In this document: one piece after another, positions 14,064 through 63,031 of the stretch | Layout of the letters: each line of letters begins with the position of its first letter | How positions within the stretch are numbered: position 1 is the first letter of the stretch | DNA from: an uncultured Dehalococcoidia bacterium | Lineage (GTDB): Bacteria > Chloroflexota > Dehalococcoidia > Lucifugimonadales > UBA826 | NCBI GenBank assembly: GCA_964500645.1 | Contig: CAZCOH010000006.1 | Coordinates: forward strand, 1,492 to 65,491 | DNA: 64,000 bases | Reading direction: 5' to 3' | Notes under the pieces: generated by a model | Database searches by the model: none | What the model saw: only the letters and a program-made list of their open reading frames with translations | What the model was told of the DNA's origin: nothing | Position numbers and translations under genes: made by a program

Positions 14064-14825
14064 ATGACAAAAAAGGTTTTAGTGACAGGGATGAGTGGGT
14101 TAATCGGAGGATTATTAAAAGACCATCTAATACAGAGCGGAAATTATGAACTTTCCGCTCTCAATCGCAGTCACGTTGAAGGGGTAACGAATTTTCAGGC
14201 GGACATTTCGGACTTAGAAGCGATTCAACCAGCCTTTGAAGGTCAAGATGTTGTTGTCCACCTTGCTGCTTATCTAGGTTCACAAGACTGGGAAGGGCAA
14301 CACGCTGGAAATGTGCTTGGAACATACAATGTTTTTGAGGCAGCTCGTAAAGCCGGGGTTAAACGAGTTATATTTGCATCAAGCGGCAACGCAATTAGAG
14401 GATTTGAGAGAGTCTCTCCATACCTTGAAATTTCAGAAGGGAAATATGATGAAGTACCTGAGAATTTCCCTATGATAACGCATGAGCAGATAAGACCTGA
14501 GGCTCTATATGGAGCAGCTAAAGTTTGGGGAGAAGCTCTTGGAAGACATTTTTCAGATGATTATGGTATGTCCGTGATTTGTGTAAGAATCGGATCTGTT
14601 CATAAAGAAAACAAGCCTTTGAGCGTCCGAGAAAATGCCATATACCTAGGACATAGAGATATATGCCAGATGCTCAATCTCTGTATTGATGCCTCTGAAG
14701 ATATTAAATACGATGTTGTGTTTGCTGTATCCAATAACAAGTGGAACTATCGTGATATATCTCATGCGAAAGACCTACTTGGTTACAACCCGGTTGATTC
14801 AGCAGATGACAATTTCTTTAGTTAA
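14064..14825 (+). CDS. NAD-dependent epimerase/dehydratase (extended SDR) family
   Basis: Rossmann VLVTGMSGLIGGLL and a YxxxK-like YGAAKVWGE. SD TAGGAGA lies upstream. Confidence 0.75.
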   Translation: MTKKVLVTGMSGLIGGLLKDHLIQSGNYELSALNRSHVEGVTNFQADISDLEAIQPAFEGQDVVVHLAAYLGSQDWEGQHAGNVLGTYNVFEAARKAGVKRVIFASSGNAIRGFERVSPYLEISEGKYDEVPENFPMITHEQIRPEALYGAAKVWGEALGRHFSDDYGMSVICVRIGSVHKENKPLSVRENAIYLGHRDICQMLNLCIDASEDIKYDVVFAVSNNKWNYRDISHAKDLLGYNPVDSADDNFFS

Positions 14826-14845
14826 AATTGTAGGGGATTAATTTA

Positions 14846-45349: not shown

Positions 45350-46807
45350 TTAACGGACTCTGTTAATTGCTTTCTTTTTAATAGAGGTCAGCATTCCTCT
45401 GAAGATAACTGCGTGAAGGGGATATAGCATTATCCAGTATAAGCACCCGAAAATAGTATTAGTATGGAATGAAGCTGTTTGTGTAAGTTTGGTTTGATTT
45501 GCAGTTTGATCCAACGTGAATGATAGTGTTGCTTTTCCTGGTAGTCTCATCTCCGCCGTTAGTTCTACCATAGCGAGGTCAATGACTTTGGAAATCCTCC
45601 ACCAGTCAAGCGTGTCACCGACGACGAACTTGTCGCTAAACATCCTAGTTCTTCTCATGCCTACTCCCCCAAGTACCAAGTCGATCCAACCTCGTATTTT
45701 CCACAGATAATTGGCGAAATACCATCCGTTTCGCCCTCCAATATTATTCAAGGTTTTGAAAATTTCCTTTTTGGTGGCCGCTAGTTCGACGTTCCTGTGA
45801 TCTTCGAATTTGTATTTATAAATAATTTCTGGTTTATTAGAGCCTTTACCACCCGAAGATAAAGCGTCAAACCATCGACTGTGACCTGTATGTTTTTCAT
45901 CAGATTTAATTGCGTATTTTATGGCTTCCCTGTATGAGATAGGATTTATATTGAAGAGGTTTTGTCCCTCTCGATCAGTAACTATGCTGTCACTGGTGAG
46001 GCTGTCTATAAGCTTTCTTCCCGCACGTGCATATGCGGGCGTCACGAGGCCTAACCAGAGACTTGATAATCTTGGGGTAAGAACCGGTACGGATATCATG
46101 GCTCTTTTGTACCCAGCTTGTCTGCCAAATTCCTTCATCAATTCTTTATAAGAAATTTGATCTGGGCCACCTATTTGTATTATTCGGTCTGTCTCCATGA
46201 CTAGCTTTATTGATTGGGCGAGATATTCAATGACATCATCTACGCCAATTGGTTGTGAAAGGGAACTTACCCATTTAGGAGTTATCATTGCAGGCAATCT
46301 TTTGACCAAACTTTGTATTATTTCGAAAGAAAGCCCTCCTGATCCAATTATTATTGAGGCTTGGAATTCTAAACAAGGTATGTCCGACGATCTCAATACG
46401 TTACCGACCTGCATTCTGCTATCTAAGTGTTGAGATAGAACATCTTCCCCAGATGCTAACCCTCCTAGATAAACGATTTTCTTCACCTTGTTCGCTACAC
46501 ACGCCTCTAGAAAATTCTTAGCGCATATCAATTCTTTTTCTCGGAAATCCTTACCAGAATTTAAAGAATGTACTAAATAATAGGCAACGTCTACGCCTTC
46601 AAAATGATTGTTAACTGTTTTCTTTTCTAACAGGTCGCATTTCCTGATATCTAAGTCAAGGAAGCTATTTTTATTCATAAGGTATTCTGGATTTCGGGCG
46701 ATACACCTGACGTTAATTGACTCTTTTGACAACCTTACTAGCAGCCTTGAACCTATATAACCAGTTGCACCCGTTAATAGAACCGTTTTTAGATGTTGAG
46801 TTTCCAT
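45350..46807 (-). CDS. NAD(P)-binding SDR (NmrA-like) fused to a DUF2867-like C-terminal domain
   Basis: VLLTGATGYIGSRLL Rossmann motif. The C-terminal 170 aa (WYFANYLWKIRGWIDLVLGGVGMRR...) matches my recollection of DUF2867. Confidence 0.65.
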   Translation of the reverse strand: METQHLKTVLLTGATGYIGSRLLVRLSKESINVRCIARNPEYLMNKNSFLDLDIRKCDLLEKKTVNNHFEGVDVAYYLVHSLNSGKDFREKELICAKNFLEACVANKVKKIVYLGGLASGEDVLSQHLDSRMQVGNVLRSSDIPCLEFQASIIIGSGGLSFEIIQSLVKRLPAMITPKWVSSLSQPIGVDDVIEYLAQSIKLVMETDRIIQIGGPDQISYKELMKEFGRQAGYKRAMISVPVLTPRLSSLWLGLVTPAYARAGRKLIDSLTSDSIVTDREGQNLFNINPISYREAIKYAIKSDEKHTGHSRWFDALSSGGKGSNKPEIIYKYKFEDHRNVELAATKKEIFKTLNNIGGRNGWYFANYLWKIRGWIDLVLGGVGMRRTRMFSDKFVVGDTLDWWRISKVIDLAMVELTAEMRLPGKATLSFTLDQTANQTKLTQTASFHTNTIFGCLYWIMLYPLHAVIFRGMLTSIKKKAINRVR

Positions 46808-46812
46808 TTTGA

Positions 46813-48225
46813 CTATTTTAGTCCCTTTTTATATTCAAATAAGGCCTTTTTTCTTGCTTCATTTAAATCCACAACGGGATTTGGGTATAGATCATCTACA
46901 ACCCTTTTACTTTTCCCGTTTGATGATCCGCGGCCTTGGTATTGCCAAGGTTCATGAATGGCCTCCATTGGCGTGCTGGATAACTCGGGTATCCATTTCT
47001 TTATGTAGCAGCCTTTTGGATCAAACTTTTTTGCTTGAATCGTCGGATTGAAAATCCTGAAATATGGTGCTGAATTTAAGCCACATCCAGTTACCCATTG
47101 CCAGTTAAATGAATTAGCAGCGAGGTCGAAATCAACTAAATAATCTTTGAAGTGATTAGCTCCATGTGTCCAATGAATTAATAGATGCTTCACCAAAAAA
47201 GAGGCACATATCATACGTGCTCTATTATCAATATTGCCGGTGAGGAGTAATTTCCTCATGGAGGCATCCACTATCGGATATCCAGTCATTCCATTCTTCC
47301 ACAGTTCTAGCTTTGTTTGATCTTCACTCCAGTTTATGTATTCAAATCTTTTGTCGATAGAGACAGTGTCCATATTAGGATTCAACTTCATGCAGTGGCG
47401 AGCGAACAGTCTCCAGCCTATTCCACGCTTTATATTTTGAATATGAGGGTATTCCTGGTTGTCGGCAAACGCATAAATTTCTTTTAAAATTTTTAATGGT
47501 TCTATTGCCCCAGCGCTTATACAGGATGACAAATCGGACCTAAAACTTGTTTCTAAAGAGATTCCTTCCTCGGACTTCAAAGGTATTTCTGAACGAAGGG
47601 AATTATTAAGATATTGTACGCCGCCAGGTTCGCAGCTTTTATTGCATGAAGTTTCGTGATTGTTCTTAAAAGAAACTTCAGTTTCTTTTAAGAAGCTAGT
47701 AAGTTTGCAGGTAATGTTTTTATTTTGGTGGTGGGGTTTTTGGGATACCCAATTTTTGAGGATAAGGGATTCCAATTGATGCCAAAAGCTTTTAAATGTT
47801 TTAAACGGTCTGTCTAAGCCTTGAATTAGAATTAATTCTGAGTTTTCTTCTACGTGTGATTGTATGCCCTCTTTAGACAAGTTTAGGCTTAGGCGATTTT
47901 CTTCATTGCGTACAAGTAAATCTGAAGATGAATTCCAATGTACGTTTCTTATTTTTCTGATTTTGCATATTTTAAGTAATGCATCCATGGAGTCGACTTC
48001 TAGGAATGAAGCCGACTCGGTGTTGCGCAACCTGTTTTCTAGACAATGTAAAGCTTTGGCCTTCCAACTTGCTACATTTTTGTTGGCATGTAGATTGAAG
48101 GGTTCATAATTCACAACTAGTATTATTTCGGATTCCTTGAACGCACTTATAATACACGGATTGTCTTCTATTCTCAGACTCTGATTTATTAGCACAATCG
48201 AGGGTATATTTGGCTCTGCCGTCAT
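46813..48225 (-). CDS. Deoxyribodipyrimidine photolyase / cryptochrome family flavoprotein
   Basis: C-terminal FAD domain TGYPIVDASMRKL...NRARMICASFLVKHLLIHW...DFDLAANSFNWQWVTGCGLNSAPYFRIFNPTIQAKKFDPKGCYIKKWIPEL. Confidence 0.85.
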   Translation of the reverse strand: MTAEPNIPSIVLINQSLRIEDNPCIISAFKESEIILVVNYEPFNLHANKNVASWKAKALHCLENRLRNTESASFLEVDSMDALLKICKIRKIRNVHWNSSSDLLVRNEENRLSLNLSKEGIQSHVEENSELILIQGLDRPFKTFKSFWHQLESLILKNWVSQKPHHQNKNITCKLTSFLKETEVSFKNNHETSCNKSCEPGGVQYLNNSLRSEIPLKSEEGISLETSFRSDLSSCISAGAIEPLKILKEIYAFADNQEYPHIQNIKRGIGWRLFARHCMKLNPNMDTVSIDKRFEYINWSEDQTKLELWKNGMTGYPIVDASMRKLLLTGNIDNRARMICASFLVKHLLIHWTHGANHFKDYLVDFDLAANSFNWQWVTGCGLNSAPYFRIFNPTIQAKKFDPKGCYIKKWIPELSSTPMEAIHEPWQYQGRGSSNGKSKRVVDDLYPNPVVDLNEARKKALFEYKKGLK

Positions 48226-49346
48226 GCTACAAGTGTTTTTTGGTCTATGTAACTAGATCTAAATCCAAGGTTCTCTTCGTGAACAATCAAGTTTGATGAA
48301 GAAGTGTTTTCTATCTGAGAAAGTGCGTTGCCTACAATTCGATCCAGTAATCTAGGGTATTCATAATATTTAGGTAGAATAACTATCTCAGCTGACTCTT
48401 TTGATGCTACGTCCATTAGTGTTTGCAAGCCGTGCTGAGGAGCTAATAATGCTTTGCAGTTAACACCTTTGTTGGTAAACCGTTCCATCTGATTTGCTAA
48501 ATGAACTCTTCCTATGTTTCTTATTGTGTTTTGGTCTAGAGGCATTTTGGTCAGCTCACCACTCCCGGGAGGACCTGGCTTTACAAAATAGGAGGCAGCA
48601 GAAATGTCATACAGCATTGCCTCTGCATTTAATTCAAGGCACATGTCTATAGCGTCGTTTATCAAAGATTCAGAAATCTCTGTTGATTCGTCAGCTGATT
48701 TATCCTGAGTGACTATGATAATTTTTTCTACGTCCCTGCCGATATTCCGTGCTATTTTTTCTGCTGTATCAGGTCCTTCAGCATTACCTAGTCTTACTGA
48801 ATCAAGATGCTGCATAAGTGATCTCACCACTCGTATGTCGGATGATGCGAATCCTTGAAATTTTTTGCCTGGGTCTGACAATTTTCCTTTAGCAAACAGG
48901 TCGTCTGAAATTTCCCAACCCACAAAAGCTATAGGTGACGGATTCTCTACTACTAGGAACCATTGATTTTCAACGTTCTCGGGGGATTCGCTGATTTTAG
49001 TCCAGTTATCTATAGCCGATGAATATTTTTCTGAAGCCTCGTTTATTCCGTAAGCGTTAATCCTAATACCCATACTACGTAATTCTTTGTAACGATTAAT
49101 TTCTTTGTCCAATTTGTCTATATTCTGAAAACCTACGTATAGTGTTACGTCGCTCGGATTTTTCTTGATTTCGTCTTCTATCTCGCGAGTTATTCCGAGC
49201 ATTTTTTTTGTGCTGTGGATGAACTCAAATCCTTCTATAGGGAGTCCGTCAGATCTAAGCGATTGGTCCATTCTCAATACCAATTCTCTGACTCCATTTT
49301 CCTCCTTTTCAGGCAGTTCTTTACTTAGTTTCCAATTGAAATACAT
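48222..49346 (-). CDS. Uncharacterised two-domain protein: N-terminal DICT-like sensor domain plus C-terminal USP-like alpha/beta domain (tentative)
   Basis: The N-terminal half has LYVGFQNIDKL..RYKEL...GIRINAYG...NQWFLVVENPSPIAFVGWE. The C-terminal half has KIIIVTQDKS...AEIVILPKYYEYPRLLDRIVGNAL...LIVHE. The stop overlaps the photolyase start (ATGA). Confidence 0.4.
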   Translation of the reverse strand: MYFNWKLSKELPEKEENGVRELVLRMDQSLRSDGLPIEGFEFIHSTKKMLGITREIEDEIKKNPSDVTLYVGFQNIDKLDKEINRYKELRSMGIRINAYGINEASEKYSSAIDNWTKISESPENVENQWFLVVENPSPIAFVGWEISDDLFAKGKLSDPGKKFQGFASSDIRVVRSLMQHLDSVRLGNAEGPDTAEKIARNIGRDVEKIIIVTQDKSADESTEISESLINDAIDMCLELNAEAMLYDISAASYFVKPGPPGSGELTKMPLDQNTIRNIGRVHLANQMERFTNKGVNCKALLAPQHGLQTLMDVASKESAEIVILPKYYEYPRLLDRIVGNALSQIENTSSSNLIVHEENLGFRSSYIDQKTLVA

Positions 49347-50243: not shown

Positions 50244-50993
50244 TTAATCAGACGAGATATTGAGGCGTCTTTTTTTACGCCATATAAATATTGATCCAGT
50301 GAAAAGGAAAATAAGAGCAATGGGGGACAAGACAGAAACATATTTAAGGTATTGAGGTTTATTTTGGGAAGTTATGTCTTTTTCTGCCAATAGAGAAGAA
50401 TGGAATTTTCTGACCTCGGTAATTGTACTCGGTAGCCTTCCCATATCCGATATCCCAAAACTCTCTTCTTTGCCTATAGCGACCCAGAGCTTACCAACCT
50501 TTATTTCGTCTTTAATGCTGACTAGGTAATAAGTACCATCTTCGGGAAGTTCCAGCGTGATTTCTCCAAAAACCCATGAATGGGTGTCTGAATAGGGTTC
50601 GTGAAATAACCTAGGGGTTTTTATTGAAGTATCAATCAATTTACTGGATGTTGAGGTAACCTCTTTTTTGGGTGAGGAGGGCTTTATTAGATATAGCGAG
50701 GGTCTGAAATCTTCTAGATCTAGTATCTTCGGTACGCCAATTTGCACATATAAATCTTCTTTTTTTGAGCCGTAAAATTTTATCCATGAAGTAGGTCTGG
50801 ATTCACTTAGTGTTTGGTAAATCGCTTTAGAAATGTGGATGTCGTTTATTGGCAACGCAGTCTCTGCCTCAAAATGTTCGTCTTTGGAAAGATAAGGGAT
50901 GTGAGCCTCTGAAGAGGTGTAGTTCATTGACACAAAGTATGCGACAGCTACAAATGTGGCGAGGAATACTTTGTGAAGGAGATTTGCTGGCAA
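50244..50993 (-). CDS. Exported protein with a C-terminal TM anchor, unknown function
   Basis: N-terminal signal-like VFLATFVAVAYFVSMNYTSSEA|HIPY. C-terminal helix VLSPIALIFLFTGSIFIW plus RKKRR. Confidence 0.5.
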   Translation of the reverse strand: MPANLLHKVFLATFVAVAYFVSMNYTSSEAHIPYLSKDEHFEAETALPINDIHISKAIYQTLSESRPTSWIKFYGSKKEDLYVQIGVPKILDLEDFRPSLYLIKPSSPKKEVTSTSSKLIDTSIKTPRLFHEPYSDTHSWVFGEITLELPEDGTYYLVSIKDEIKVGKLWVAIGKEESFGISDMGRLPSTITEVRKFHSSLLAEKDITSQNKPQYLKYVSVLSPIALIFLFTGSIFIWRKKRRLNISSD

Positions 50994-50994
50994 C

Positions 50995-51909
50995 TTACTC
51001 TCTCTTAGATGGGATTCTCAATCTATGTATAAAGCCGCGTGATGGCGATTCAAGATTATCAATATGCTTATCAGGTTTGCTATAGAAAGGGACTTTTAAG
51101 TGATGGAATAATTTATAAGCATGTTTCAGTATATTGATTTCGGTGAAAAGCACAGTTTTCATTATTGAAGGACAAATCTTCCAAAGGTTAAAATTTGTCA
51201 TTTGGACAAGCTTTGCTCTGAATAAGGTGGTGATCATTATTTCTGACCTTTGGTGAAGAGTGATCGTTATCTTTAGGTCATCAGGCGAGAGATGAAAATT
51301 GAACTCATATTCTCCAGTTCTTTCTAGAAAAGGGGATACGTGAAGTTTTTTTGACGACCAGTAATTTCCTTGAGATTGATCGAACTGAACTTCGTCAAGA
51401 TAATATAGATGAGACTCACTGAAAGTATTATTTACTTCAGCTATAACTGATTTTATATCATTGCACGAATTAACCACTAAATAGAAAACTATAGGGTTGA
51501 ATCCGTATCCAAAGACTGAAGGCGTGGTAAGTAGATATACTTTATCGTCCCTCGTAAATTGCGATGTTTTTTGGCTTAAGAAGTCCTCAATTTTTTGTTT
51601 AATAGAAGTGGTGGATTTGTCTATGTAGTTATCGTTTTTGATTGAAAGAAACCCAAATTTGGTTAATGGGAATTTCCAGCCAAAATCGCCCGTTGTAAGT
51701 AGATCTGCCTGGTCTATGAGCAACATCGTATGTGTTGACTTAAACGTGTTCTGCACTGGGTAGAACCGACTATGAATCAATTCCCCGCGAGCTATAGAGG
51801 AGTCTACTAACTTGACTATATTATTACCTCTGCGTTTATCATATCTGCCACTTGTTGACCTGACCTGAATCCATCTTCGTGAAATCCGTATCCTGTGTAG
51901 GCTCCACAA
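50995..51909 (-). CDS. DUF1365 protein (UfaO-like); start uncertain
   Basis: ARGELIHSRFYPVQNTFKSTHTMLLIDQADL and FGYGFNPIVFYLV match the DUF1365 pattern. The track TTG start overlaps the upstream gene by 94 nt. Confidence 0.7.
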   Translation of the reverse strand: MWSLHRIRISRRWIQVRSTSGRYDKRRGNNIVKLVDSSIARGELIHSRFYPVQNTFKSTHTMLLIDQADLLTTGDFGWKFPLTKFGFLSIKNDNYIDKSTTSIKQKIEDFLSQKTSQFTRDDKVYLLTTPSVFGYGFNPIVFYLVVNSCNDIKSVIAEVNNTFSESHLYYLDEVQFDQSQGNYWSSKKLHVSPFLERTGEYEFNFHLSPDDLKITITLHQRSEIMITTLFRAKLVQMTNFNLWKICPSIMKTVLFTEINILKHAYKLFHHLKVPFYSKPDKHIDNLESPSRGFIHRLRIPSKRE

Positions 51910-53072
51910 AATTTGATTGCTTTGTGAGAGTTAATACTTTGGATAACTCTAAATGATTCTTTTTCTGTCTTATCCAGTATTGGATGGCTATATTCGGTCG
52001 AGTATATAGTTTTAGTTATTTGGGGTATTTTAGGAGGATTAAGCGAAACGAAATAATTAGTTTTTGAACAAATATTTTGGAGTTTGTTCATGTAGTAAGT
52101 AATGTAGGTTGCGGACGATTCGTTGGAGTCATGTGTACGTATGACATTCCATGATGCCCATGCTCGCTTCATAGGTGGCATGAATTTTCGGTCTGTATGC
52201 AAATAAACTTTGTTTTTGGTGTATTTGAAAGATTTCAGAATGATATGTATGTTGGGAAAGTCCTTTTTTACAAGGTTGGCTGCGGTATCGGCATGTGTTG
52301 CAACAATGACCCGGTCGAATGCCTCAGACTGATTTCCATTAATCGTCAAGCTTGAGGATTCTTCACCCTTGTTTATATGAGTGACTTTGGTGTTGAGACG
52401 AATTCTCCCATTGAATGATTTTTTAAAGGATTCGATGTAGCTTATGGAGCCATCACTGATGGTTTGCCATGAAGGCCTATTCTTGACTCGGAAAAGGCCA
52501 TGGTTATTAAAAAAACTCACGTATGTTGATGCCGGTATTTTACTTGCACTTAATATGCTGCAAGACCAAATCGCAGCAGCAATGGGTAGGAAATAATCCT
52601 CGATTACATAATTTGGGCATCCAAGCATTCTAAGGTATTTGGAGATAGAATCAGAATTGCTTGGGGATATATGGCTGTTTGAAAGCTTCTTGGAGTATTT
52701 GTAAATCGCTAAAAGAGTGTGCCAGTGTCGGTATTCAAATATCTTTTTTTTGTTTGGAAATAATCCCCCAACGGAACCTGCATAACAAGTATTATTTACT
52801 TCATCATGAAAAGAGAAAGACATATTAGATGGGTTTCTGTCTATACCTAGTTTTTCTAAAAATTCATTGAAGAGGGGATAATTTTTTTCATTGAATACTA
52901 TGAAGCCTGTGTCTATGTATCTTATTGTACGATCAATATCTTTTGTGATTACGGTGTTTGTATGTCCACCTAGGCGGTCTTGTTCTTCAAATAAAGTCAC
53001 ACGGTGGAGGCCTTGTAAATTGAATGCCGCAGAAATGCCAGAGATTCCGCTTCCTATTACCGCTATTTTCAT
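51816..53072 (-). CDS. FAD-dependent amine-oxidase/desaturase-like oxidoreductase (UfaD-like)
   Basis: Dinucleotide fold MKIAVIGSGISGISAAFNL...LFEEQDRLGGHTNT and C-terminal FCGAYTGYGFHEDG. Confidence 0.8.
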   Translation of the reverse strand: MKIAVIGSGISGISAAFNLQGLHRVTLFEEQDRLGGHTNTVITKDIDRTIRYIDTGFIVFNEKNYPLFNEFLEKLGIDRNPSNMSFSFHDEVNNTCYAGSVGGLFPNKKKIFEYRHWHTLLAIYKYSKKLSNSHISPSNSDSISKYLRMLGCPNYVIEDYFLPIAAAIWSCSILSASKIPASTYVSFFNNHGLFRVKNRPSWQTISDGSISYIESFKKSFNGRIRLNTKVTHINKGEESSSLTINGNQSEAFDRVIVATHADTAANLVKKDFPNIHIILKSFKYTKNKVYLHTDRKFMPPMKRAWASWNVIRTHDSNESSATYITYYMNKLQNICSKTNYFVSLNPPKIPQITKTIYSTEYSHPILDKTEKESFRVIQSINSHKAIKFCGAYTGYGFHEDGFRSGQQVADMINAEVII

Positions 53073-53079
53073 AATGACT

Positions 53080-54108
53080 CTAATTTCTCTTTTTAAAAAG
53101 GTAGTGAATTATGTACCATTCACCGCCGTCTCTGTAATTGAATAGCTCGGAGCAAAAAATTAGAAATAGCTTGTAACGATTGAAATGCTTTGCTCTTTCT
53201 TTTCCATAACCGTTCTCATCCATGTCTCTTAATATGATCTTTTTATTCAATTTGAAATTACTTAACCAGGATTCCAGACTCCGGTGATAATTGTGGCCAG
53301 ATAATTTCCAGACCTCAATGTTTTCAAGGTTAGAATTTAGTTTTTTATAAAACCCGTCATATGGCATCATTCCTCCTGTAAAGAAATTTTTCGACATCCA
53401 GGAGGTTTTTTGGTTATCGAAATACTGCGGGTACACTTTATGTGAGAAAACCTGAATAAATAAGGTTCCCCTCGAATTTAGCCAACCGTCTATTCTACTC
53501 ATTAAGGTTTTGGGGTTCCTGATATGTTCGAACATTTCAATAGAAATTATTCGATCATACTTACGCGTAGGTACATATTGATTGATATCGCATTTCACAA
53601 CTTCTAGGTTGTATAAATTTTGTTGAGAAGCCTTTTGCTCTATGTATTGTTTTTGGGTTGTAGAGTTTGTAACTGCTGTTACAAACGTTTTTTTATATAA
53701 GCTTGCAATTTCTAGCGATAAAGATCCCCATCCGCATCCTAGTTCCAAAACTGAATCACCGTCTGCAATACGACATTTATTGATGTAGTTTCGTAGTGTT
53801 TGAAAGTCTGCTTCCTTTAGGTCGTAAGAGTCACTGGACCATTCTGAGCCACTGTATTTCATGGAAGGACCTAAAAAGTATTCGTACACTGAGGAACTCA
53901 TCTCATAGTGTTGGTGATTCGCCTCTTCAGTATTAATGGCTATTTCTGAATTTGAAGAGGTTAATTTGAATGCTTGTCTTATCTTATGCAGTTCGTTATT
54001 GCTGAGTTCTAAAATTCTAGATTCATATTTTTTTAGTCCCAGGCGGACAAACAACCTTAGTACACGTTCAGGAACCAACCCGCTGTCTATGATTGACTCA
54101 TACCACAT
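53080..54108 (-). CDS. CFA-synthase-family SAM-dependent methyltransferase (second paralog)
   Basis: HYEMSSSVYEYFLGPSMKYS, SAM motif VLELGCGWGSL, and ISIEMFEHI. Confidence 0.8.
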   Translation of the reverse strand: MWYESIIDSGLVPERVLRLFVRLGLKKYESRILELSNNELHKIRQAFKLTSSNSEIAINTEEANHQHYEMSSSVYEYFLGPSMKYSGSEWSSDSYDLKEADFQTLRNYINKCRIADGDSVLELGCGWGSLSLEIASLYKKTFVTAVTNSTTQKQYIEQKASQQNLYNLEVVKCDINQYVPTRKYDRIISIEMFEHIRNPKTLMSRIDGWLNSRGTLFIQVFSHKVYPQYFDNQKTSWMSKNFFTGGMMPYDGFYKKLNSNLENIEVWKLSGHNYHRSLESWLSNFKLNKKIILRDMDENGYGKERAKHFNRYKLFLIFCSELFNYRDGGEWYIIHYLFKKRN

Positions 54109-54112
54109 GTCG

Positions 54113-55303
54113 TTATTTCTTCTTAAAGGAGAATTGAAAATTACTTATGTGACCTGACTTAAACGCACCTGCACAATATGAAAAATAGTAGAAAAAACGT
54201 CGGTAGTCATTATCATCGAATCCTAAGTCATGAATAAGTTGCCGGTTTTTTTCTAGGGTTTTCTGCCAAGTAATCAACGTCTTTGGATAATGACTACCGA
54301 TCTCGCTTTCTCTGTATATCTCAAATCCACAATCCGAAGCTGACTGCTTTATTAGTCCGGTTGGAAGTAGGAGTCCTCCGGGGAATATGTATTTTTGAAT
54401 GAAGTCACAATTTTTTCTATACGATTCGTATCTTTCATCTGGTATTGTTATAACTTGGAGTTGTAGGGTGCCATCAGTCCTAAGTAATGTGGCACATTTA
54501 GAGAAAAAATCACTGATTCCTTTGTGGCCAATCGCTTCTACCATTTCCACGGAGAAAATATGATCATATTTTCCGGATAAGTCTCTGTAATCCAGTAATT
54601 GGATGTCTATTGCATCATTAAGCCCAAGGTTTGCGAATTTTCCTTTGCTGTAATTGTGCTGGCTTTCAGAAAGAGTAATAGCTGAAACTTTTGCCCCGTA
54701 GTCCGATGCAGCAATTATTGGGAGGTTACCCCAGCCGGAACCGATATCAAGGATATGGTCATCAGCCTTCACAGGAGCAGACTTCATCATCACATTGATT
54801 TTTTCGGCTTGTGCCTCTTCTAAGGAATCGGAAGTCTCGTTATAGATCGCGCAGGAGTATGTAAGAGAGGGGTCCAAAAAGCAGGAAAAAAATTCGTTAC
54901 TAATGTCGTAATGGGATTTTATGTTGTTTCTGGATTGTTTTCTTGTGTTACGGACTCTAAAGGATTGAATAATTTTAGAATAAATTTTCAGAGGGGCAAT
55001 TTTTGAAATAAGTTGACGTTTCTCTTGCCCTGACGTTATGGAAATATATTCAAATAATTCTGTTAAATCAGAGTGAGTCCATTTGCCGTCGATATATGAC
55101 TTTGCGAAACCCAAATCATAGCCGTATACAAGGTCAGTAAAAAAAGACCAATCATTCACCTGTATTGGATCTACGGATCTATTGCCGTTATCGAATACGT
55201 GACGAATCCCATCTGGTGTCGTTATAGGAATGCCTGCTTTACTAAAGTTAGATAGGACTTTTTTGTAAAGTAGCTTTCCGATATACGTACTAATAGTATT
55301 CAA
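54113..55303 (-). CDS. Cyclopropane-fatty-acyl-phospholipid-synthase-family methyltransferase
   Basis: HYDISNEFFSCFLDPSLTYSCAIY, ILDIGSGWGNL, SVEMVEAIG and FIQKYIFPGG. Confidence 0.8.
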   Translation of the reverse strand: MNTISTYIGKLLYKKVLSNFSKAGIPITTPDGIRHVFDNGNRSVDPIQVNDWSFFTDLVYGYDLGFAKSYIDGKWTHSDLTELFEYISITSGQEKRQLISKIAPLKIYSKIIQSFRVRNTRKQSRNNIKSHYDISNEFFSCFLDPSLTYSCAIYNETSDSLEEAQAEKINVMMKSAPVKADDHILDIGSGWGNLPIIAASDYGAKVSAITLSESQHNYSKGKFANLGLNDAIDIQLLDYRDLSGKYDHIFSVEMVEAIGHKGISDFFSKCATLLRTDGTLQLQVITIPDERYESYRKNCDFIQKYIFPGGLLLPTGLIKQSASDCGFEIYRESEIGSHYPKTLITWQKTLEKNRQLIHDLGFDDNDYRRFFYYFSYCAGAFKSGHISNFQFSFKKK

Positions 55304-56395
55304 CTAAAGACTCTGTAATTTAATTTTCGTAGGTTCCTGAGAGAAATCTTTTAAATAACCCTCAATGTTCATTTTTTCCGTAACCCATCTTTTTAGGATG
55401 GTCCTAAATCTGTACTCTATAAGCTCGGGGAATGTCATTGGACTCAGACCTTCGCTCGACTCTAGGCCCAAATGTTCTAATACTATTTCTCCGACTAAGC
55501 CGTGGCCACCTCTGATGTTTCCAAGCGCCTTTGAGACAAAAACGTTTGGGACGTATCTTAGAAACCTTTTTTCCTTCAAGGAAGCGTATCCTACAATCAA
55601 TTCACCGAGTTTTGCTTTGTCTTGAAGCATTTCGTTAATATTTCCTATTATTCGTACTAAAAGTGCCGTAATGTCCCCATTCATTCTAGGTATCCATTTT
55701 TGAGTTTTGGACTCTATATTTGCGACCAAAGGTATGTGGTTTGAAGGCATTTGAAAGTTTGATATGGCGTGGGTTATCTGTTTCATTAACCCGGGATCTG
55801 ATTCAAGTTGTATAGCAGTTAAATTTCTGAACTGAACTGTGTGTAGGGCTTCTCTCCCTTTGACTTTGCTAAGAATCTTAGTAGTGTTACTTTCCTCGGG
55901 GAAAAATCCACGTTGAAGTTCGTACCAATAGTCTGTTATGCATTCCTGTATCATTCCGTAGGTGGTAAGTTCAATAGGGTGATATCCAGAGCTATGAACC
56001 TCCTGATAAGATACACTGTCGAATGCTTCCTGAACCTGTTGTTCAAGTTCCGATTTATCAATACCGAAGTCTACTAAGATATTTTTAAACGGGTCGGCAT
56101 GTCCTCTTTCATCCGGGGCCCAAAATCCCGTGACATAGTTGCTTAGCCAGAATGCACCATGATCTTTAGCTCCTGCTAAGTAGGTGTCTGCGTATTGTTC
56201 AGTTAAGGATTCGGTGATAAAAGAAAGCTTGAAAGTGTCCACTAGGTCTGAGGCAGACATCTTACTCTGAGCAATAATTTCTTCTGGTTTATAGGTCTCA
56301 AACATTGAATCTAAGTCACTTTGATTTACTGTTTGTAACTTAGGTATTTGTTTGTTTACGTACGACTCCAGTATTTTGGTCGTTACATCATCCAT
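55304..56395 (-). CDS. Ferritin-like diiron protein resembling soluble acyl-ACP desaturases
   Basis: The pattern is E...ExxH...E...ExxH: SLTEQY, WAPDERGHAD (compare WTAEENRHGD of acyl-ACP desaturases), IQECITDYW and GREALHTVQF. Confidence 0.5.
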   Translation of the reverse strand: MDDVTTKILESYVNKQIPKLQTVNQSDLDSMFETYKPEEIIAQSKMSASDLVDTFKLSFITESLTEQYADTYLAGAKDHGAFWLSNYVTGFWAPDERGHADPFKNILVDFGIDKSELEQQVQEAFDSVSYQEVHSSGYHPIELTTYGMIQECITDYWYELQRGFFPEESNTTKILSKVKGREALHTVQFRNLTAIQLESDPGLMKQITHAISNFQMPSNHIPLVANIESKTQKWIPRMNGDITALLVRIIGNINEMLQDKAKLGELIVGYASLKEKRFLRYVPNVFVSKALGNIRGGHGLVGEIVLEHLGLESSEGLSPMTFPELIEYRFRTILKRWVTEKMNIEGYLKDFSQEPTKIKLQSL

Positions 56396-56419: not shown

Positions 56420-56899
56420 CTATTTACATCTGGATTCAAAATCTTTTGCCTTAGAAAGTATGGTTCCGTAGTCAGGAGCGTCACCAGGGTGTTTTCCAAC
56501 CCACTCAAATAACACATGACCTTCAGAATCGGTAAAGAAAACTGCTCTATTTGCCGACCTATAGTTCTCTACTCCTCCAAGCCCCTTAAATTCGACTTCA
56601 AATTGATCTATTAAACGTAGTTCATGATCACTTAGAAGGTCAAAATCGATTGCGTAATCATTCTTCCATTTTTCTAATACGAAGGTGGAATCCACGGTTA
56701 TTCCTGTAACTTTTGTGATTCCGGGATCAAGCTCATCCAAGTACAGGTTGAATTCTGTGAGTCCTAAATTGCATAAATCTGTGAAAGCTCCCGGGAAGAA
56801 GCAGACGATGTTTAAAGGAAAATCTGTATCAATTACAGGACGGGATTTTCGATTTTGATTATATAAATGTATTGGATCAATTTGCTTTCCAATTACCAT
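56420..56899 (-). CDS. Peroxiredoxin-like (AhpC/TSA, BCP-type) protein
   Basis: Universal PxxxTxxC motif as PGAFTDLC. The size of about 160 aa fits a thioredoxin fold. Confidence 0.65.
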   Translation of the reverse strand: MVIGKQIDPIHLYNQNRKSRPVIDTDFPLNIVCFFPGAFTDLCNLGLTEFNLYLDELDPGITKVTGITVDSTFVLEKWKNDYAIDFDLLSDHELRLIDQFEVEFKGLGGVENYRSANRAVFFTDSEGHVLFEWVGKHPGDAPDYGTILSKAKDFESRCK

Positions 56900-56914: not shown

Positions 56915-57454
56915 CTAAGTTTTGTGAAAAAAAATGACCCATAAAATTGCATCCATAATGAGACAGTGAAATGTTATGGCAGCTAGTCCTGCAAGCGCCA
57001 CAATTTTTTCCGTAGACGAAAAATCACTGCCGTCGTAAGTTGCCACACCCAAACATAAAAGTATAAGAGACAATGCCGTAATCCACAAAACTACAACGGT
57101 TAATATCCACCAAAAGTTGCTTCCTGAAATTATGTAAGTCAGCAAAAATGGCATCCAGCAGGCTGCTGATAACAAGAAAATAGCAGCAAGAATCGTTATT
57201 GAATGATTTCCAAGTAGCCAGTCATGACTGAAATGCGTCGCCCCGTCCTTAAATACTGCCATGTAACAAAACATTAAGTAGCCAATTGCGGCTATCAACA
57301 TTGATACAACAATTGCTTGTCGCCAGCTCGCACTTACTCCGCCCCACAAAGAATTTCTGTGTTCTGGGAAGTTTCCTATGCCAATAGCATACCCCCCTAA
57401 AACCAAGATGCCGCCAATGATGTTTACTAAAATGAAAGTCATCTGTGGGGACAT
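56915..57454 (-). CDS. Hypothetical membrane protein (about 5 TM), first gene of the long minus-strand cluster
   Basis: Hydrophobic helices. SD TGGAGT lies 9 nt upstream of the ATG. Confidence 0.5.
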   Translation of the reverse strand: MSPQMTFILVNIIGGILVLGGYAIGIGNFPEHRNSLWGGVSASWRQAIVVSMLIAAIGYLMFCYMAVFKDGATHFSHDWLLGNHSITILAAIFLLSAACWMPFLLTYIISGSNFWWILTVVVLWITALSLILLCLGVATYDGSDFSSTEKIVALAGLAAITFHCLIMDAILWVIFFHKT

Positions 57455-57494
57455 TTTTCTACTCCAAAAAGTGAGGTGAATTTTTAAAAGGTAT

Positions 57495-57512
57495 ATGTGT
57501 TATGATACACAT
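57495..57512. promoter_or_regulatory. Inverted repeat ATGTGT-TATGAT-ACACAT in the divergent promoter region (candidate operator overlapping a -10-like hexamer)
   Basis: The 6-bp arms are perfect and the 6-bp spacer TATGAT resembles a -10 box. It lies about 41 nt upstream of the start at 57454 and 149 nt upstream of the start at 57661. Confidence 0.25.
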
Positions 57513-57660
57513 GAGATTGCTTAAACACAAACAAATGGTTTTCCAATTATCTGGTTTAGTAACTGCTTGAATAAAGTGATTGAGACGCAGTAGACAAGCT
57601 ATAAGGCCAGAAACTGACGCATAAACATAGTTAGGTAGAGTAAAGGATCCAGAAGTACAT

Positions 57661-59091
57661 ATGAACGTTTTGATGGTAGGTAGCACCGGGTTTATAGGTA
57701 GAGCCACCCTTGCTTATTTACAGGGGAAAGGACACCGTGTAGCAGCGTGGGTTAGAGATTCTGAAAAAGCAAGAGATCTGTTAGGTGAAGGGATTAGAAT
57801 TCTCGGACCATTTGTAAACCCGACGGACCTTAGAAAAGAATTGGAATGGGCAGACTGTGTTGTGAATCTTGCCGGGAGACCTTTGGCCGGGGTGAGATGG
57901 ACCAAAAAAAAGAAGAAAGATTTTGAGGACAGTAGAATTGGATTAACCAACATCATTACTGAGGAAATCTCGAATTGCCAAAATCCTCCTAGTGTGTTCG
58001 TGTCAGCGAGCGCGGTTGGGTACTATGGAGATCGAGGATCGGAAGTTCTTACGGAAAGATCATCAAAAGGTGAAGATTATCTTTCCGATCTCTGCTCCAG
58101 TTGGGAAGAATCTGCGCATAAGGCAGAAAAATATGGGGTGAGGGTATGCACCTTAAGATTGGGGATAGTTTTGGGCAGGGAAGGCGGAATACTTAAACAA
58201 GTATTACCGGGATTTGAAATGGGTCTTGGAACTTACACTGGGGATGGTAACCAGCAACTATCATGGATACATCTTGCGGACGTGGCACGAGCTATAGAAT
58301 TTTGTATTTCTGATGAACGGGTCACAGGCCCGGTGAATATTACCTCTCCCAAACCTAGCACTAGCAAGCAATTTGCCTTAGAACTTGGTAGTGTGACAAA
58401 TGCGAAGATTGTACTTCCAATCGGATCTTTTCCTCTAAGAGTGATTTTCGGTGAAGGAGCCACGGTACTAACGAATAGTCAAAAAGCTATTCCACAAAAA
58501 TTGCAAGACCTTGGATTCGAATTTATCTACACAAGTTTGAATGATGTTTTCAAAGACGAAGTAACCCCTGATTCTGTGATTATTCAAAGGGTCAAAGATC
58601 ATGATTTGCTCCCTAAAGGAATTAAGGGGGATTACATATTAGAAACCGAAGTCTCTTTAAAAACTGGTTCTGAAGAGACTTTCGGGTTTTTCTCCTCACC
58701 GCTCAATCTGGGTCTATCTACTCCTTCTTGGGTCGGATTTAAAATAAAAGAAATGCCTAATGAGGTGAGAGAAGGTTCAGTAATTACATATCGTATTAAA
58801 GTTGGACCTATCCCACTGAAATGGAAGACGGTTATATGGGAATGGAATCCCAACGACTCATTTATTGATTTTCAGGAAAAAGGTCCGTACAAAGTGTGGC
58901 ATCACGAACATGAAATCATACCCAATGGACCTGGCGCCTCTATTATGAAGGATTCAGTCACATACACCATACCGGGAGGGCTTGTGGGCAGAATAATTCA
59001 TTCTATTTTCATAAAGAAAACTCTAATCCGTATATTTGGGTATAGAAGAAGGGTAATTCAACTGAGGTTCGAGAGGGAAATATATGCCTAG
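57661..59091 (+). CDS. TIGR01777/SDR39U1-type epimerase-family protein (with DUF1731) fused to a C-terminal SRPBCC domain
   Basis: MNVLMVGSTGFIGRA; SQKAIPQKLQDLGFEFIY (DUF1731-like); C-terminal GPYKVWHHEHEI...DSVTYTIPGGLVGRII...IFGYRRRVI. Confidence 0.75.
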   Translation: MNVLMVGSTGFIGRATLAYLQGKGHRVAAWVRDSEKARDLLGEGIRILGPFVNPTDLRKELEWADCVVNLAGRPLAGVRWTKKKKKDFEDSRIGLTNIITEEISNCQNPPSVFVSASAVGYYGDRGSEVLTERSSKGEDYLSDLCSSWEESAHKAEKYGVRVCTLRLGIVLGREGGILKQVLPGFEMGLGTYTGDGNQQLSWIHLADVARAIEFCISDERVTGPVNITSPKPSTSKQFALELGSVTNAKIVLPIGSFPLRVIFGEGATVLTNSQKAIPQKLQDLGFEFIYTSLNDVFKDEVTPDSVIIQRVKDHDLLPKGIKGDYILETEVSLKTGSEETFGFFSSPLNLGLSTPSWVGFKIKEMPNEVREGSVITYRIKVGPIPLKWKTVIWEWNPNDSFIDFQEKGPYKVWHHEHEIIPNGPGASIMKDSVTYTIPGGLVGRIIHSIFIKKTLIRIFGYRRRVIQLRFEREIYA

Positions 59092-59980
59092 TAAGAGCAA
59101 TGATGAAAAAGATTTACTAACAAACAAAATATGTGAAGAATTAGTAGAGGCGATGTTGGAGGCGGATAGAAATCGCTGTGAGTCCCTTATAGAAGGAGCT
59201 TTACTTAATAATTTGACGCCAGTTCAGATTTTTGATTCTGTAATTTCAGTCGCTCTTAACCGGATTGGGGCACTATGGCACAAAGGATCTATTACTATTG
59301 CTCACGAGCACGGTGCAAGTGAGATAGCACAGAATCTTATTGATTTTGTTTCTGATAAAACTCCTCATTTATCATCAAATGGCCTTACTGCTGTAGTGGC
59401 GGGAGTGGAGGGGGAACAACATGTTTTGGGCGCCAAGTTCTTTTCCGCCTTGCTGGAAGTGGAGGGATGGATTGTGCACTATTTAGGTTCCTCATTACCC
59501 AGTGATGATCTGGTGCAATATGTCGTTGAAAAAAACGTAGATGCGATTGTGCTGACTATAGTTCTACCTGACAATATTGATCATGCAGAACAATGCCTAA
59601 AAAAATTGCAGAAATTAGACTCTCCCCCGGTTGTGTTAGTTGGAGGTGGGGCTGTGATAGGAAAGGAACTAGAAGGAGCTGTAGTTGCAGAGAATTTGGT
59701 GTCTGGTCTCACCTTGCTAGAGTCAAATTTTGGAATGGGTAGTTCTATGTTCACACTAGACGACATTCTTTTGGGTATAGGACAAAACATACAAGACATT
59801 AGAAAATCTAGAGGCATGAATCAGGGTCAATTAGCCGAGGCAGCAGGCGTTGATAGAGCGTACATAAGTTTAGTTGAAAATGGTAAACAGAACCTGACAT
59901 TAGCTGCTTTAGTAAGGCTATCAGAAGCATTGTCGGTTCCCGTATCTGGAGTCATACCTGTTTCCACCTATAGACGTTGA
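59084..59980 (+). CDS. Cobalamin-binding (CarH-like photosensory signature) protein with a C-terminal XRE-family HTH
   Basis: W65-x9-E75-H76 (ALWHKGSITIAHEH), E111-x-H113-x-x-G116 (GEQHVLG), and a Rossmann-like B12 domain. The C-terminal HTH_3 is RGMNQGQLAEAAGVDRAYISLVENGKQNLTLAALVRLSEAL. The ATG overlaps the upstream stop by 8 nt. Confidence 0.8.
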   Translation: MPSKSNDEKDLLTNKICEELVEAMLEADRNRCESLIEGALLNNLTPVQIFDSVISVALNRIGALWHKGSITIAHEHGASEIAQNLIDFVSDKTPHLSSNGLTAVVAGVEGEQHVLGAKFFSALLEVEGWIVHYLGSSLPSDDLVQYVVEKNVDAIVLTIVLPDNIDHAEQCLKKLQKLDSPPVVLVGGGAVIGKELEGAVVAENLVSGLTLLESNFGMGSSMFTLDDILLGIGQNIQDIRKSRGMNQGQLAEAAGVDRAYISLVENGKQNLTLAALVRLSEALSVPVSGVIPVSTYRR

Positions 59981-61867: not shown

Positions 61868-63031
61868 TTAGTCTAGAATTGATTTTGCTAGAGCTTCAAG
61901 CGCTCTCGCTTCTATCGGAGGATTTGAGACTCCACTTCTGACATCTCTGAAGAACCTCTCAAGAGGTCTGTTTTTTTCCAGCCCAACGGCTCCTACAATT
62001 CGCATGGCGATGTCAGTAACACTTATCGCAGAGTCGACACAATTTACCTTAGTAATAAGAACCTCTGGGAGCAAGTCCTTGCGTTGACTTACGTAGTTCT
62101 CCCAGTCTTCTGAACAAGAAAAAAGCGATCTTTGTGCTACCAAAAGAAGAGACTCCATTTTGGCTATTTGTTCACGTATGTGAGGTATCTCCGATATTGT
62201 ATTTGCAGCACCACCTGGCCTACGGGTTCTTGCAAACTCAATTGCGTATGATCTAGCCGCATAAGCGATGCCCAAGTTTGCAGCACTTACTAATATAGGG
62301 AACCATGCAGCTCCATTAGGGCCATCATTGATGGGCTTATTTGTATTGGATCTGGAAATAAATTGATCACCAGAAAGGACAACGTTTTCAAAGACAATAT
62401 CGTGAGATCCACTCGATCTCATAGACATAGAATCCCATGTCTCTTCAATGGTTATGCCTTTCCCCGACATGTCCACTGATACTCGGGCGGTATCGTTAGT
62501 GCCGTCCTCTACTGCCGCATAGACAATTGCATTTCCAAGGTCTGGTGCTAAAGTTGACCAAGTTTTCCTCCCATTTAAGATCCATGTGTTCTTTTTATAT
62601 GGTTCTAATGTTGTTGATGGTCGGCCACCACCTCTAGGCGATCCTAATTCAGGTTCAGATGCTATGTTGTTAACTAAAATACCTTCTTTCGCAATTTTTT
62701 CAAAGATTCTCTTTCTTAGGCGACTTGGCCATTTTTCTGATTCAACTTCTGTGCCCACGACCATATGGTGCATTCCCACAGAAATAGCAGTGGCCCCATT
62801 CCCTTTTCCGATTTCAAATTGAGCAAGGGCTAAATCAGTCAAGCCATGGCCATTTCCCCCGAATTGTTTCGGGACAGATGCTTTTATATATCCTAAACTT
62901 TTCATTAAGGAAAAATGATCGTGAGGAAACGTTCCATCTCGGTCGTGTTTCCCGGCGGTCGAGGAAATTTGATCAGATATTTCTTTAGAAATTTTTATGA
63001 AATCTTCTTGTTGCTTATTCTTTGGCCACAT
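61868..63031 (-). CDS. Acyl-CoA dehydrogenase family protein
   Basis: ACAD-like three-domain pattern, with WILNGRKTWST and a C-terminal helical domain (ERFFRDVRSG). Confidence 0.8.
   Translation of the reverse strand: MWPKNKQQEDFIKISKEISDQISSTAGKHDRDGTFPHDHFSLMKSLGYIKASVPKQFGGNGHGLTDLALAQFEIGKGNGATAISVGMHHMVVGTEVESEKWPSRLRKRIFEKIAKEGILVNNIASEPELGSPRGGGRPSTTLEPYKKNTWILNGRKTWSTLAPDLGNAIVYAAVEDGTNDTARVSVDMSGKGITIEETWDSMSMRSSGSHDIVFENVVLSGDQFISRSNTNKPINDGPNGAAWFPILVSAANLGIAYAARSYAIEFARTRRPGGAANTISEIPHIREQIAKMESLLLVAQRSLFSCSEDWENYVSQRKDLLPEVLITKVNCVDSAISVTDIAMRIVGAVGLEKNRPLERFFRDVRSGVSNPPIEARALEALAKSILD

Follow-up and report, generated by a model that had tools for sequence, protein, structure and literature searches.

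Whether the gene cluster at 50995-55303 of a 64,000-nucleotide stretch from an uncultured Dehalococcoidia bacterium (contig CAZCOH010000006.1; the whole stretch is referred to below as the window) encodes the synthesis of furan fatty acids is the question raised by this locus. A sequence-only reading had seen four consecutive genes here, encoding a DUF1365 protein, a flavin adenine dinucleotide (FAD) protein of the amine-oxidase type and two methylases, in a putative Chloroflexota genome; the coordinates and Pfam matches agree with this gene content, and the NCBI depositor label, Dehalococcoidia, agrees with the host. By analogy with characterized bacteria, the operon formed by these genes is predicted, with moderate confidence, to convert acyl chains of membrane phospholipids into methylated furan fatty acids under the control of light in surface-ocean Dehalococcoidia related to SAR202. 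The product would probably be mono- or dimethyl furan fatty acids, and a dimethyl end product is held with somewhat lower confidence. The complete conserved gene set predicts a candidate furan fatty acid producer among abundant ocean bacteria, the SAR202-related Dehalococcoidia, and the operon is a candidate photoprotective trait of the lineages that carry it.

To our knowledge, bacterial makers of furan fatty acids, and of the dimethyl forms above all, have been demonstrated in few organisms only. Furan fatty acids were reportedly found in Dehalococcoides lipids in 2005. In Cereibacter (Rhodobacter) sphaeroides, UfaM (RSP2144) methylates cis-vaccenate to 11Me-12t-18:1, UfaD (RSP1091), an NAD/FAD protein resembling phytoene desaturases, yields 11Me-10t,12t-18:2, and the DUF1365-containing UfaO (RSP1090) uses O2 to form the furan fatty acid 9M5-FuFA (Lemke et al. 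2020, PMC7380195). FufM (RPA0924, Q6NBA4) of Rhodopseudomonas palustris, which is 26% identical to UfaM, methylates 9M5-FuFA to 9D5-FuFA (PMC7380195). The sequence-only reading had cited this pathway, with FufM as a second S-adenosylmethionine (SAM) methylase and UfaO as a member of the DUF1365 family, and both points agree with that paper. Bacteria from across the phylogeny, and eukaryotes too, have homologues of the monomethyl pathway, and a subset has FufM homologues; furan fatty acids themselves, known from fish, plants and certain bacteria, are potent scavengers of singlet oxygen and radicals (PMC7380195).

The four core open reading frames (ORFs) are consecutive and intact on the minus strand (50995-51909, 51816-53072, 53080-54108 and 54113-55303), and the lengths of all four proteins agree with those of homologues. 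Because the last three core junctions measure 4, 7 and about 8 bp, the genes are read as a single operon. The operon extends beyond the four genes first noted: three additional co-directional genes, encoding a diiron protein, a peroxiredoxin and a membrane protein, lie upstream with gaps of 0-24 bp, and one gene for a protein of 249 amino acids (aa) lies downstream, 1 bp past the end of the DUF1365 gene. From the first gene to the last, the operon consists of:

56915..57454, minus strand: multi-pass membrane protein, 179 aa, first operon gene, with homologues in the same position
56420..56899, minus strand: BCP/PrxQ-like peroxiredoxin, 159 aa (AhpC-TSA, E 2.2e-14)
55304..56395, minus strand: diiron-carboxylate protein, 363 aa, assigned from ligand motifs, fold and position
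54113..55303, minus strand: UfaM-like SAM methylase of the cyclopropane fatty acid (CFA) synthase family, full-length, 396 aa (Pfam CMAS, E 5.6e-82, 275.6 bits)
53080..54108, minus strand: FufM-like methylase of the coclaurine-N-methyltransferase (CNMT)/LIME branch, 342 aa (Pfam CMAS, E 2.2e-35)
51816..53072, minus strand: UfaD-like FAD protein of the amine-oxidase/phytoene-desaturase type, 418 aa (Amino_oxidase, E 4.2e-27, and NAD_binding_8)
50995..51909, minus strand: UfaO-like DUF1365 protein, ORF of 304 aa (DUF1365, PF07103, E 7.6e-52, 176.7 bits, profile positions 2-234 of 235)
50244..50993, minus strand: conserved 249-aa protein, last operon gene, with homologues in the same position

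The 304-aa DUF1365 ORF is 100% identical to NCBI MFL2784455.1, 'MAG: DUF1365 family protein [Dehalococcoidia bacterium]', from contig JBJLGU010000074.1 of assembly GCA_045564695.1. An exact look-up of the window's FAD protein gave no record. Genes of the operon are already present, with machine annotation, in public metagenome-assembled genomes (MAGs), and near relatives come from TARA and other marine metagenomes.

The 418-aa FAD protein has an NAD/FAD Rossmann fold resembling phytoene desaturases and amine oxidases, as described for UfaD, with an N-terminal GSGISG (GxGxxG) at residues 7-12 and weak matches to the HpnE and CrtI families of NCBIfam. It is 34-35% identical to an Acinetobacter FAD oxidoreductase adjoining a DUF1365 gene and to a Shinella one about 5 kb from DUF1365. 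The DUF1365 protein carries a full-length DUF1365 domain, the domain also present in UfaO, and its gene comes right after that of the UfaD-type FAD protein within the same transcription unit. The same order of FAD gene and DUF1365 gene was observed in related contigs (L004, L006, L036-L040, L049 and L091) as well as in Acinetobacter and Ralstonia. A PDB sequence search with the DUF1365 protein gave no match, and the family has no solved structure.

The functional start of the DUF1365 gene is ambiguous, and its start codon appears degraded in the window lineage. Homology to relatives starts near residue 35 of the 304-aa ORF (about 51807); at this point the sister lineage has a TTG start right behind the stop codon of the FAD gene, whereas the window and contig L001 have TTA-GTA instead. 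The canonical starts on offer are TTG at 51909, TTG at 51780 and ATG at 51726, the first of which would give a 94-nt overlap with the upstream FAD gene. Gene callers assign 243, 261, 270 or 304 aa to near-identical DUF1365 genes.

The 396-aa methylase matches solved CFA synthases end to end in the PDB (5z9o, E 1.3e-51, aligned over residues 9-393; 6bqc, E 9.4e-42). It is 35.6% identical (234 bits) to an Acinetobacter CFA-family protein whose gene adjoins DUF1365 and 32% identical (154 bits) to E. coli Cfa. Glu239 and Tyr317 of Cfa are retained, while the bicarbonate ligand His266 is replaced by Gln and accompanied by a 2-residue insertion, a change shared by all three further homologues in the alignment that are encoded in such clusters, two from marine contigs and one from Acinetobacter. 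The position of the gene within the cluster agrees with that of the R. palustris CFA-like gene RPA2569, which is UfaM (PMC7380195), and of a Halomonas CFA-like gene adjoining ufaD and ufaO that was shown to be UfaM (PMC12089945).

The 342-aa methylase is 27% identical to the 396-aa protein, and its best PDB match is CNMT (6gkv, E 1.7e-53, 185 bits), whereas CFA synthases reach 1e-23 at best with at most 86 bits. Its AlphaFold2 (AF2) model has a predicted confidence (pLDDT) of 94.7 and superimposes on CNMT with a TM score of 0.94, a root-mean-square deviation of 1.7 Å and 31% identity, compared with TM scores of 0.65-0.69 against CFA synthases. The catalytic E-x-x-E-H stretch is retained as IEMFEH. 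On sequence and model, the protein is assigned to the CNMT-like branch of the CMAS superfamily and is not a second CFA synthase; the earlier description of two CFA-synthase-family methylases is upheld in that both proteins are CMAS members and needs correction for this one.

Second methylases of proteobacterial ufa clusters are 37-39% identical to the 342-aa protein. The plant enzyme LIME1 is presumably CNMT-like, although the word 'coclaurine' is absent from the paper that gives its identity to FufM. That identity, between FufM and the Arabidopsis methyltransferase LIME1 (AT4G33110), is 37.9% (PMC10940516). The profile of the 342-aa protein is as expected of a FufM-type enzyme, the link to FufM being indirect and made through identities from the literature, and the prediction of a dimethyl product is indirectly supported because the protein has this profile. 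Like plant CNMT and LIME1, the 342-aa protein has the complete CNMT architecture with the IEMFEH stretch; unlike them, it is bacterial and encoded in an operon with lipid-modifying enzymes, and its expected substrate, by analogy with FufM, would be a ring carbon of an acyl-chain furan, whereas that of CNMT is an alkaloid nitrogen.

The gene order is conserved in marine relatives. The order CMAS397-CMAS344-AmOx-DUF1365 is retained at 38-51% identity in marine contigs, some of which are named SAR202 or Chloroflexi by NCBI. A metagenome scan with the regulator described below as the query found full-length relatives on 16 contigs, seven of which have sufficient flank (L036-L040, L049 and L091), and these seven were compared together with L006 and L007. 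In all nine contigs, the genes for the 249-aa protein, DUF1365, the FAD oxidoreductase, the 342-aa and 396-aa CMAS proteins and the membrane protein are found in this order against the direction of transcription, with the diiron gene between the 396-aa methylase and the membrane protein in the seven scan contigs and absent from L006 and L007. On the divergent side, all nine have the TIGR01777 gene followed by the B12/helix-turn-helix (HTH) regulator and a 152-aa ORF, with plsY adjoining.

The two terminal genes belong to this conserved set. Homologues of the 179-aa membrane protein with 40-48% identity are likewise the first gene in L006, L036-L040, L049 and L091, and homologues of the 249-aa protein, which has hydrophobic segments at its N- and C-terminus, occupy the same position in L006, L036, L039, L040, L049 and L091 with 38-43% identity. 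Neither the 179-aa nor the 249-aa protein has a Pfam or NCBIfam match. In every lineage with sufficient flank, these two conserved membrane-associated proteins flank the operon on both ends. They may substitute for the proteobacterial DUF1295, DUF2177 or DUF2878 accessory genes, which the window cluster lacks. The peroxiredoxin, in which the motif PxxxTxxC reads FPGAFTDLC in the translation, is intra-operonic in the window lineage only; the sister lineage has a 40%-identical copy a few kb off.

Corresponding gene sets are found in Proteobacteria. The Acinetobacter plasmid pYUSHP14-1 carries lipocalin-desaturase-FAD oxidoreductase-DUF1365-CFA-DUF1295-second methylase, and p56D2 of Ralstonia wenshanensis carries MerR regulator-folE-FAD oxidoreductase-DUF1365-CFA-DUF1295-second methylase, followed by lipocalins, a cryptochrome/photolyase, TIGR01777 and a photolyase. 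Shinella has sigmaE-ChrR-DUF1295-second methylase with DUF1365 nearby. Judging by these loci, the gene set, with its two methylases, photolyase and TIGR01777, recurs as a photo-oxidative-stress module for which proteobacterial annotations already exist.

In an alignment of 26 sequences of the diiron protein family, E62, E96-x-x-H99, E151 and E182-x-x-H185, which are the classical six diiron ligands, are invariant. The protein remains below the Pfam gathering score (FA_desaturase_2, PF03405, 18.7 bits against a cut-off of 22.7) and had no PDB sequence match with either a single sequence or a profile. The best PDB fold for its AF2 model (pLDDT 81.6) is the castor stearoyl-ACP desaturase (E 1.6e-3), followed by R2-like oxidases (R2lox), although these fold matches are weak (TM about 0.45-0.49). 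The family has 103 cluster representatives among 1.84 billion proteins, its profile finds distant members that pass PF03405, and its named members are all proteins of SAR202 or Dehalococcoidia MAGs called merely 'hypothetical protein'. On motifs and model, it appears to be a small clade-specific family remotely related to the soluble acyl-ACP desaturases.

In L004, L036-L040, L049 and L091, the methylase genes are immediately preceded by the diiron gene (L006 and L007 being without it), and in Acinetobacter a non-homologous membrane acyl-CoA desaturase holds the equivalent position ahead of the cluster, which is why a desaturase-type role is proposed. Its task would be to provide the double bond or set its position, or else to perform a further O2-dependent step.

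The divergent side of the locus consists of the following features:

57455..57660, no strand: divergent promoter region, with a candidate extended -10 element and operator
57661..59091, plus strand: NAD-dependent oxidoreductase of the TIGR01777 (YfcH) type (TIGR01777, E 3.5e-87, with Epimerase and DUF1731)
59084..59980, plus strand: regulator, 298 aa, with an N-terminal B12 module and a C-terminal XRE domain (B12-binding_2, B12-binding and HTH_3)

The regulator gene follows the TIGR01777 gene with an 8-nt overlap, the two are always paired in related contigs, and the regulator adjoins the operon in all nine related contigs with sufficient flank. The homologue in L006 (3542-4432) is 44% identical, and further homologues are present in L036-L049. 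W65-x9-E75-H76 and E111-Q-H113-V-L-G116, corresponding to the CarH motifs Wx9EH of the upper face and E/DxHxxG with the lower axial His, are conserved in the window and in L006/L007. The best PDB matches are the cobalamin-binding proteins 8j2x and 8j2w, which we take to be photocobilin-type light sensors, followed by CarH. The N-terminal winged helix of MerR type was not found in the regulator; its HTH_3/XRE domain is C-terminal, at residues 233-288, and with the CarH model of NCBIfam it reaches 75.3 bits, the cut-off being 400. By its sequence, the regulator is outside the CarH family in the strict sense. A literature search found no paper naming CarH, a B12-binding domain and XRE together. 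The TIGR01777 protein has an extra C-terminal part of about 175 aa without a Pfam match. A TIGR01777 gene also adjoins a photolyase gene in the Ralstonia ufa locus, and regulons of this kind seem to include the family regularly.

In the divergent promoter region, the core TGTGyTATrrTACA at 57496-57509 lies within a perfect palindrome, ATGTGT-N6-ACACAT (57495-57512), and is invariant in an alignment of eight intergenic regions; these represent three lineages with protein identities of only about 45%. The core and palindrome are probably an extended -10 element embedded in a putative operator. The core is found once per locus. The window has a single such site, a count not above the shuffled expectation, and the motif takes its weight from its conservation across lineages, and from that alone. 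A generic promoter and terminator scan of the window gave fewer sites than in shuffles.

The regulator resembles the adenosylcobalamin photoreceptor repressors CarH and LitR in its B12-binding_2 and B12-binding module with Wx9EH and ExHxxG, and in the location of its gene, which has photoprotection genes and a promoter containing a palindrome as neighbours. It differs from them in its reversed domain order and in having HTH_3/XRE rather than MerR, and its DNA binding and light response are predictions from sequence. Control of the operon by light would be expected by analogy, because light induction of phrB and ufaM under LitR-family control in Pseudomonas (PMC9758184) and control of the Rhodobacter ufa genes by sigmaE-ChrR (PMC7380195) are published.

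After the operon, a second co-directional group (45350-49346) follows, which may be a second photo-response unit:

48222..49346, minus strand: DICT-domain protein, 374 aa (DICT, E 1.4e-07, weak)
46813..48225, minus strand: DNA photolyase of the cyclobutane pyrimidine dimer (CPD) type (FAD_binding_7, E 7.9e-73, and DNA_photolyase)
45350..46807, minus strand: NmrA/DUF2867 fusion protein (DUF2867, E 5.1e-27)

The DICT protein gene ends 4 nt inside the photolyase gene. The photolyase linkage is present in L001, which belongs to the window lineage. An earlier claim that the module is tied to a photolyase and a B12 sensor thus holds for the adjacency of both and for the conserved linkage of the regulator, but the photolyase linkage does not extend to the sister lineage.

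With family membership, operon structure and synteny established, we infer the substrate, product, reaction order, role of the diiron protein and light control as follows. A cis-monounsaturated acyl chain would be supplied, perhaps with the operon's own diiron desaturase-like protein. The 396-aa methylase would transfer the SAM methyl group onto the phospholipid-bound monoene to give an allylic methyl-branched trans-olefin (the UfaM step), the FAD protein would introduce a second, conjugated double bond (the UfaD step), and the DUF1365 protein would add an oxygen atom from O2, closing the furan ring (the UfaO step). The 342-aa CNMT-type methylase would then add a second ring methyl group, giving a dimethyl furan fatty acid (the FufM step). 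The peroxiredoxin may handle lipid hydroperoxides, and, together with the two membrane proteins without a family match, it would be accessory. Transcription probably starts from the promoter region shared with the divergent TIGR01777 and regulator genes; the B12-binding XRE regulator would repress in the dark and be released in the light, as for CarH.

Several observations weigh against this scheme. The DUF1365 protein is highly divergent, with at most 33% identity outside its own lineage and 25% identity to the Acinetobacter and Shinella DUF1365 proteins. The only sequence marks that might set a UfaM-type enzyme apart from a cyclopropane- or methylene-forming one are a weak similarity ranking and the change of His266 to Gln, and R. 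sphaeroides makes furan fatty acids without the CFA-like RSP1089 of its operon, which is not UfaM (PMC7380195). The solved structures closest to the 342-aa methylase are N-methyltransferases, and in the sister lineage the photolyase gene is not linked to the operon. The likeness to UfaM, UfaD, UfaO and FufM is drawn from protein families and from annotated proteobacterial loci. Finally, the sole cultured SAR202 strain (JH545) was reported without furan fatty acids, from dark-grown cells and MIDI analysis (PMC10444878).

The cultured strain also provides the ground for an explanation without a furan ring, in which the locus would make mid-chain methyl-branched or methylated unsaturated fatty acids (e.g., 10- or 11-methyl), the CFA-like methylase and the FAD protein forming a methylation/redox pair and DUF1365 having another or no catalytic role. 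BfaA is presumably an FAD_binding_4-type protein. 10-Methyl C16:0 and 10-methyl C18:0 are among the major fatty acids of cultured SAR202 (Ca. Lucifugimonas marina) (PMC10444878), 10-methyl fatty acids are made by the CFA-like methylase BfaB with the adjacent FAD enzyme BfaA (PMC5660069, PMC7791843), and the product specificity of CMAS proteins is unreadable from sequence. The window and BfaA/BfaB share a CFA-family methylase acting on phospholipid monoenes, as predicted here, and a flavoenzyme. However, the authors set bfaAB apart from the cluster of ufaA1 type, and their description of BfaA differs ('FAD oxidase' or 'FAD-binding oxidoreductase', with the Pfam family unnamed in the papers) from the amine-oxidase/phytoene-desaturase-like protein found here, which is as in UfaD. 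BfaA/BfaB also require no DUF1365 partner and have no second methylase, and this explanation leaves the strictly conserved DUF1365 and second methylase of the operon unaccounted for. The sole FAD_binding_4 gene in the window (14846-16231) is not adjacent to a methylase, and a bfaAB-type origin was rejected as the leading explanation since this gene pairs with an epimerase gene. A methyl-branched product without a furan ring is considered unlikely.

A different doubt concerns the last step alone: the pathway might end at a monomethyl furan fatty acid or another intermediate, and the 342-aa enzyme might methylate an amine, a lipid head group or a quinone-like molecule, in which case the dimethyl prediction would be wrong. 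All near solved relatives of this enzyme are alkaloid N-methyltransferases, its family is huge (at least 7998 matches at E <= 1e-10) with FufM as the sole member with a demonstrated lipid substrate, and its comparison with FufM runs via literature values. Against this, every related contig has the gene in the same place, with the UfaM-like gene on one side and the UfaD-like gene on the other, its proteobacterial relatives (34-39%) lie in or beside DUF1365/FAD/CFA clusters at all three loci inspected, and its profile agrees with that of FufM, which is LIME1-like and 26% identical to UfaM; such an early end of the pathway is considered rather unlikely. Far less credible is an ordinary CFA synthase gene that happens to lie beside unrelated oxidoreductase and other genes with no shared pathway. 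The 396-aa protein does align with solved CFA synthases over its full length, Glu239 and Tyr317 included, and NCBI and JGI name such genes CFA synthase, but the gaps are 0-8 bp across five core genes (diiron to DUF1365) and the order is identical in lineages that are 38-58% identical, so that chance adjacency is excluded by the tight spacing and conserved order. The bicarbonate ligand His266 is moreover replaced in all in-cluster homologues, and a corresponding gene set recurs in Proteobacteria.

The furan fatty acid reading can be set against the characterized systems in some detail. The same four protein families as in R. sphaeroides and R. palustris are present in the window, the FAD gene is directly upstream of DUF1365 as in ufaD-ufaO, a CFA-like gene lies within the cluster as in R. 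palustris and Halomonas, and there is an association with photo-oxidative stress genes. In contrast to R. sphaeroides and R. palustris, the order is methylase-methylase-FAD-DUF1365 with the FufM-like gene in the operon, whereas fufM of R. palustris is unlinked; an SDR, DUF1295 or DUF2177-type accessory gene is lacking from the window cluster, and a diiron protein, a peroxiredoxin and two membrane proteins are added. The operon is not under sigmaE-ChrR as in R. sphaeroides, the sequences are distant (DUF1365 about 25% identical to proteobacterial members), and the product is predicted by analogy.

With the Pseudomonas LitR (PplR/PmlR) regulon (PMC9758184) and the Ralstonia and Acinetobacter loci, the locus shares the FAD oxidoreductase, DUF1365, CFA-family protein and second methylase with photolyase and TIGR01777, as well as a regulator of the CarH/LitR lineage, as in the proteobacterial light and singlet-oxygen regulons, and, with Acinetobacter, a fatty acid desaturase ahead of the cluster. 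The differences are a C-terminal XRE domain here and an N-terminal MerR domain there, full B12 photoreceptor motifs here and Class II LitR proteins that make no use of B12, a soluble-type diiron desaturase-like protein here and a membrane acyl-CoA desaturase in Acinetobacter, and the host phylum, which is Chloroflexota here.

The sequence-only reading went too far in calling this module new. Homologues across the bacterial phylogeny are published, as is ufaM-phrB under LitR/CarH-family or sigmaE-ChrR control, and annotations in Ralstonia and Acinetobacter show the cluster with both methylases, photolyase and TIGR01777. The pathway, its families, their wide distribution and the link to photolyase and a light or singlet-oxygen regulator are already published or annotated, and the chemistry itself would not be new. 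A literature search found no paper linking SAR202 or Dehalococcoidia genomes to DUF1365 or furan fatty acid genes. Three variant features distinguish the locus, namely the fufM-like gene within the operon, the clade-specific diiron partner and the B12-XRE regulator. The unannotated diiron protein tied to the pathway and the B12-XRE regulator with its defined candidate operator offer handles for experiment.

SAR202 bacteria live throughout the ocean, and light kills those that have been cultured (PMC10444878). A bolder version of the furan fatty acid reading, which we offer tentatively and consider rather improbable as a whole, is that the eight genes form a self-contained cassette of marine SAR202-type Dehalococcoidia that is switched by light (the sister lineage having seven, with the peroxiredoxin outside). 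In it, the diiron enzyme and the UfaM, UfaD, UfaO and FufM types would produce either dimethyl furan fatty acids or some related oxygenated lipid not yet described, with an undescribed class of B12 photoreceptor (CarH-type sensor with XRE) in control. If this were true, one source of the dimethyl furan fatty acids that build up in marine food webs would be an abundant group of bacterioplankton.

The 21-nt start of R. palustris fufM taken from published cloning primers, ATGAGCGGGCTCGCCTCGCTG, gave 20 genome-contig matches (L008-L027), none of them in Rhodopseudomonas. Sixteen of the 20 lie in a conserved stretch (reading 'TGG.PVPS.MSGLASL*' in one frame), all in Chloroflexia or Chloroflexi MAGs. 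These matches were rejected as fufM, since in frame they mostly read '...MSGLASL*' in an unrelated conserved stretch; a conserved gene without relation to FufM, seen from its other strand or in a different frame, is the probable source.

Elsewhere in the window, an epimerase-family gene followed by a gene for a 461-aa FAD_binding_4 protein (14064-16231, plus strand) forms a pair that resembles DprE2/DprE1, with no methylase adjoining. Several genes encoding CoA-transferase family III, acyl-CoA dehydrogenase and enoyl-CoA hydratase proteins are located at 4987-12896 and 61868-63031, and a sulfatase gene is located at 20556-22007. This paralogue-rich catabolic content of the window is typical of descriptions of SAR202.

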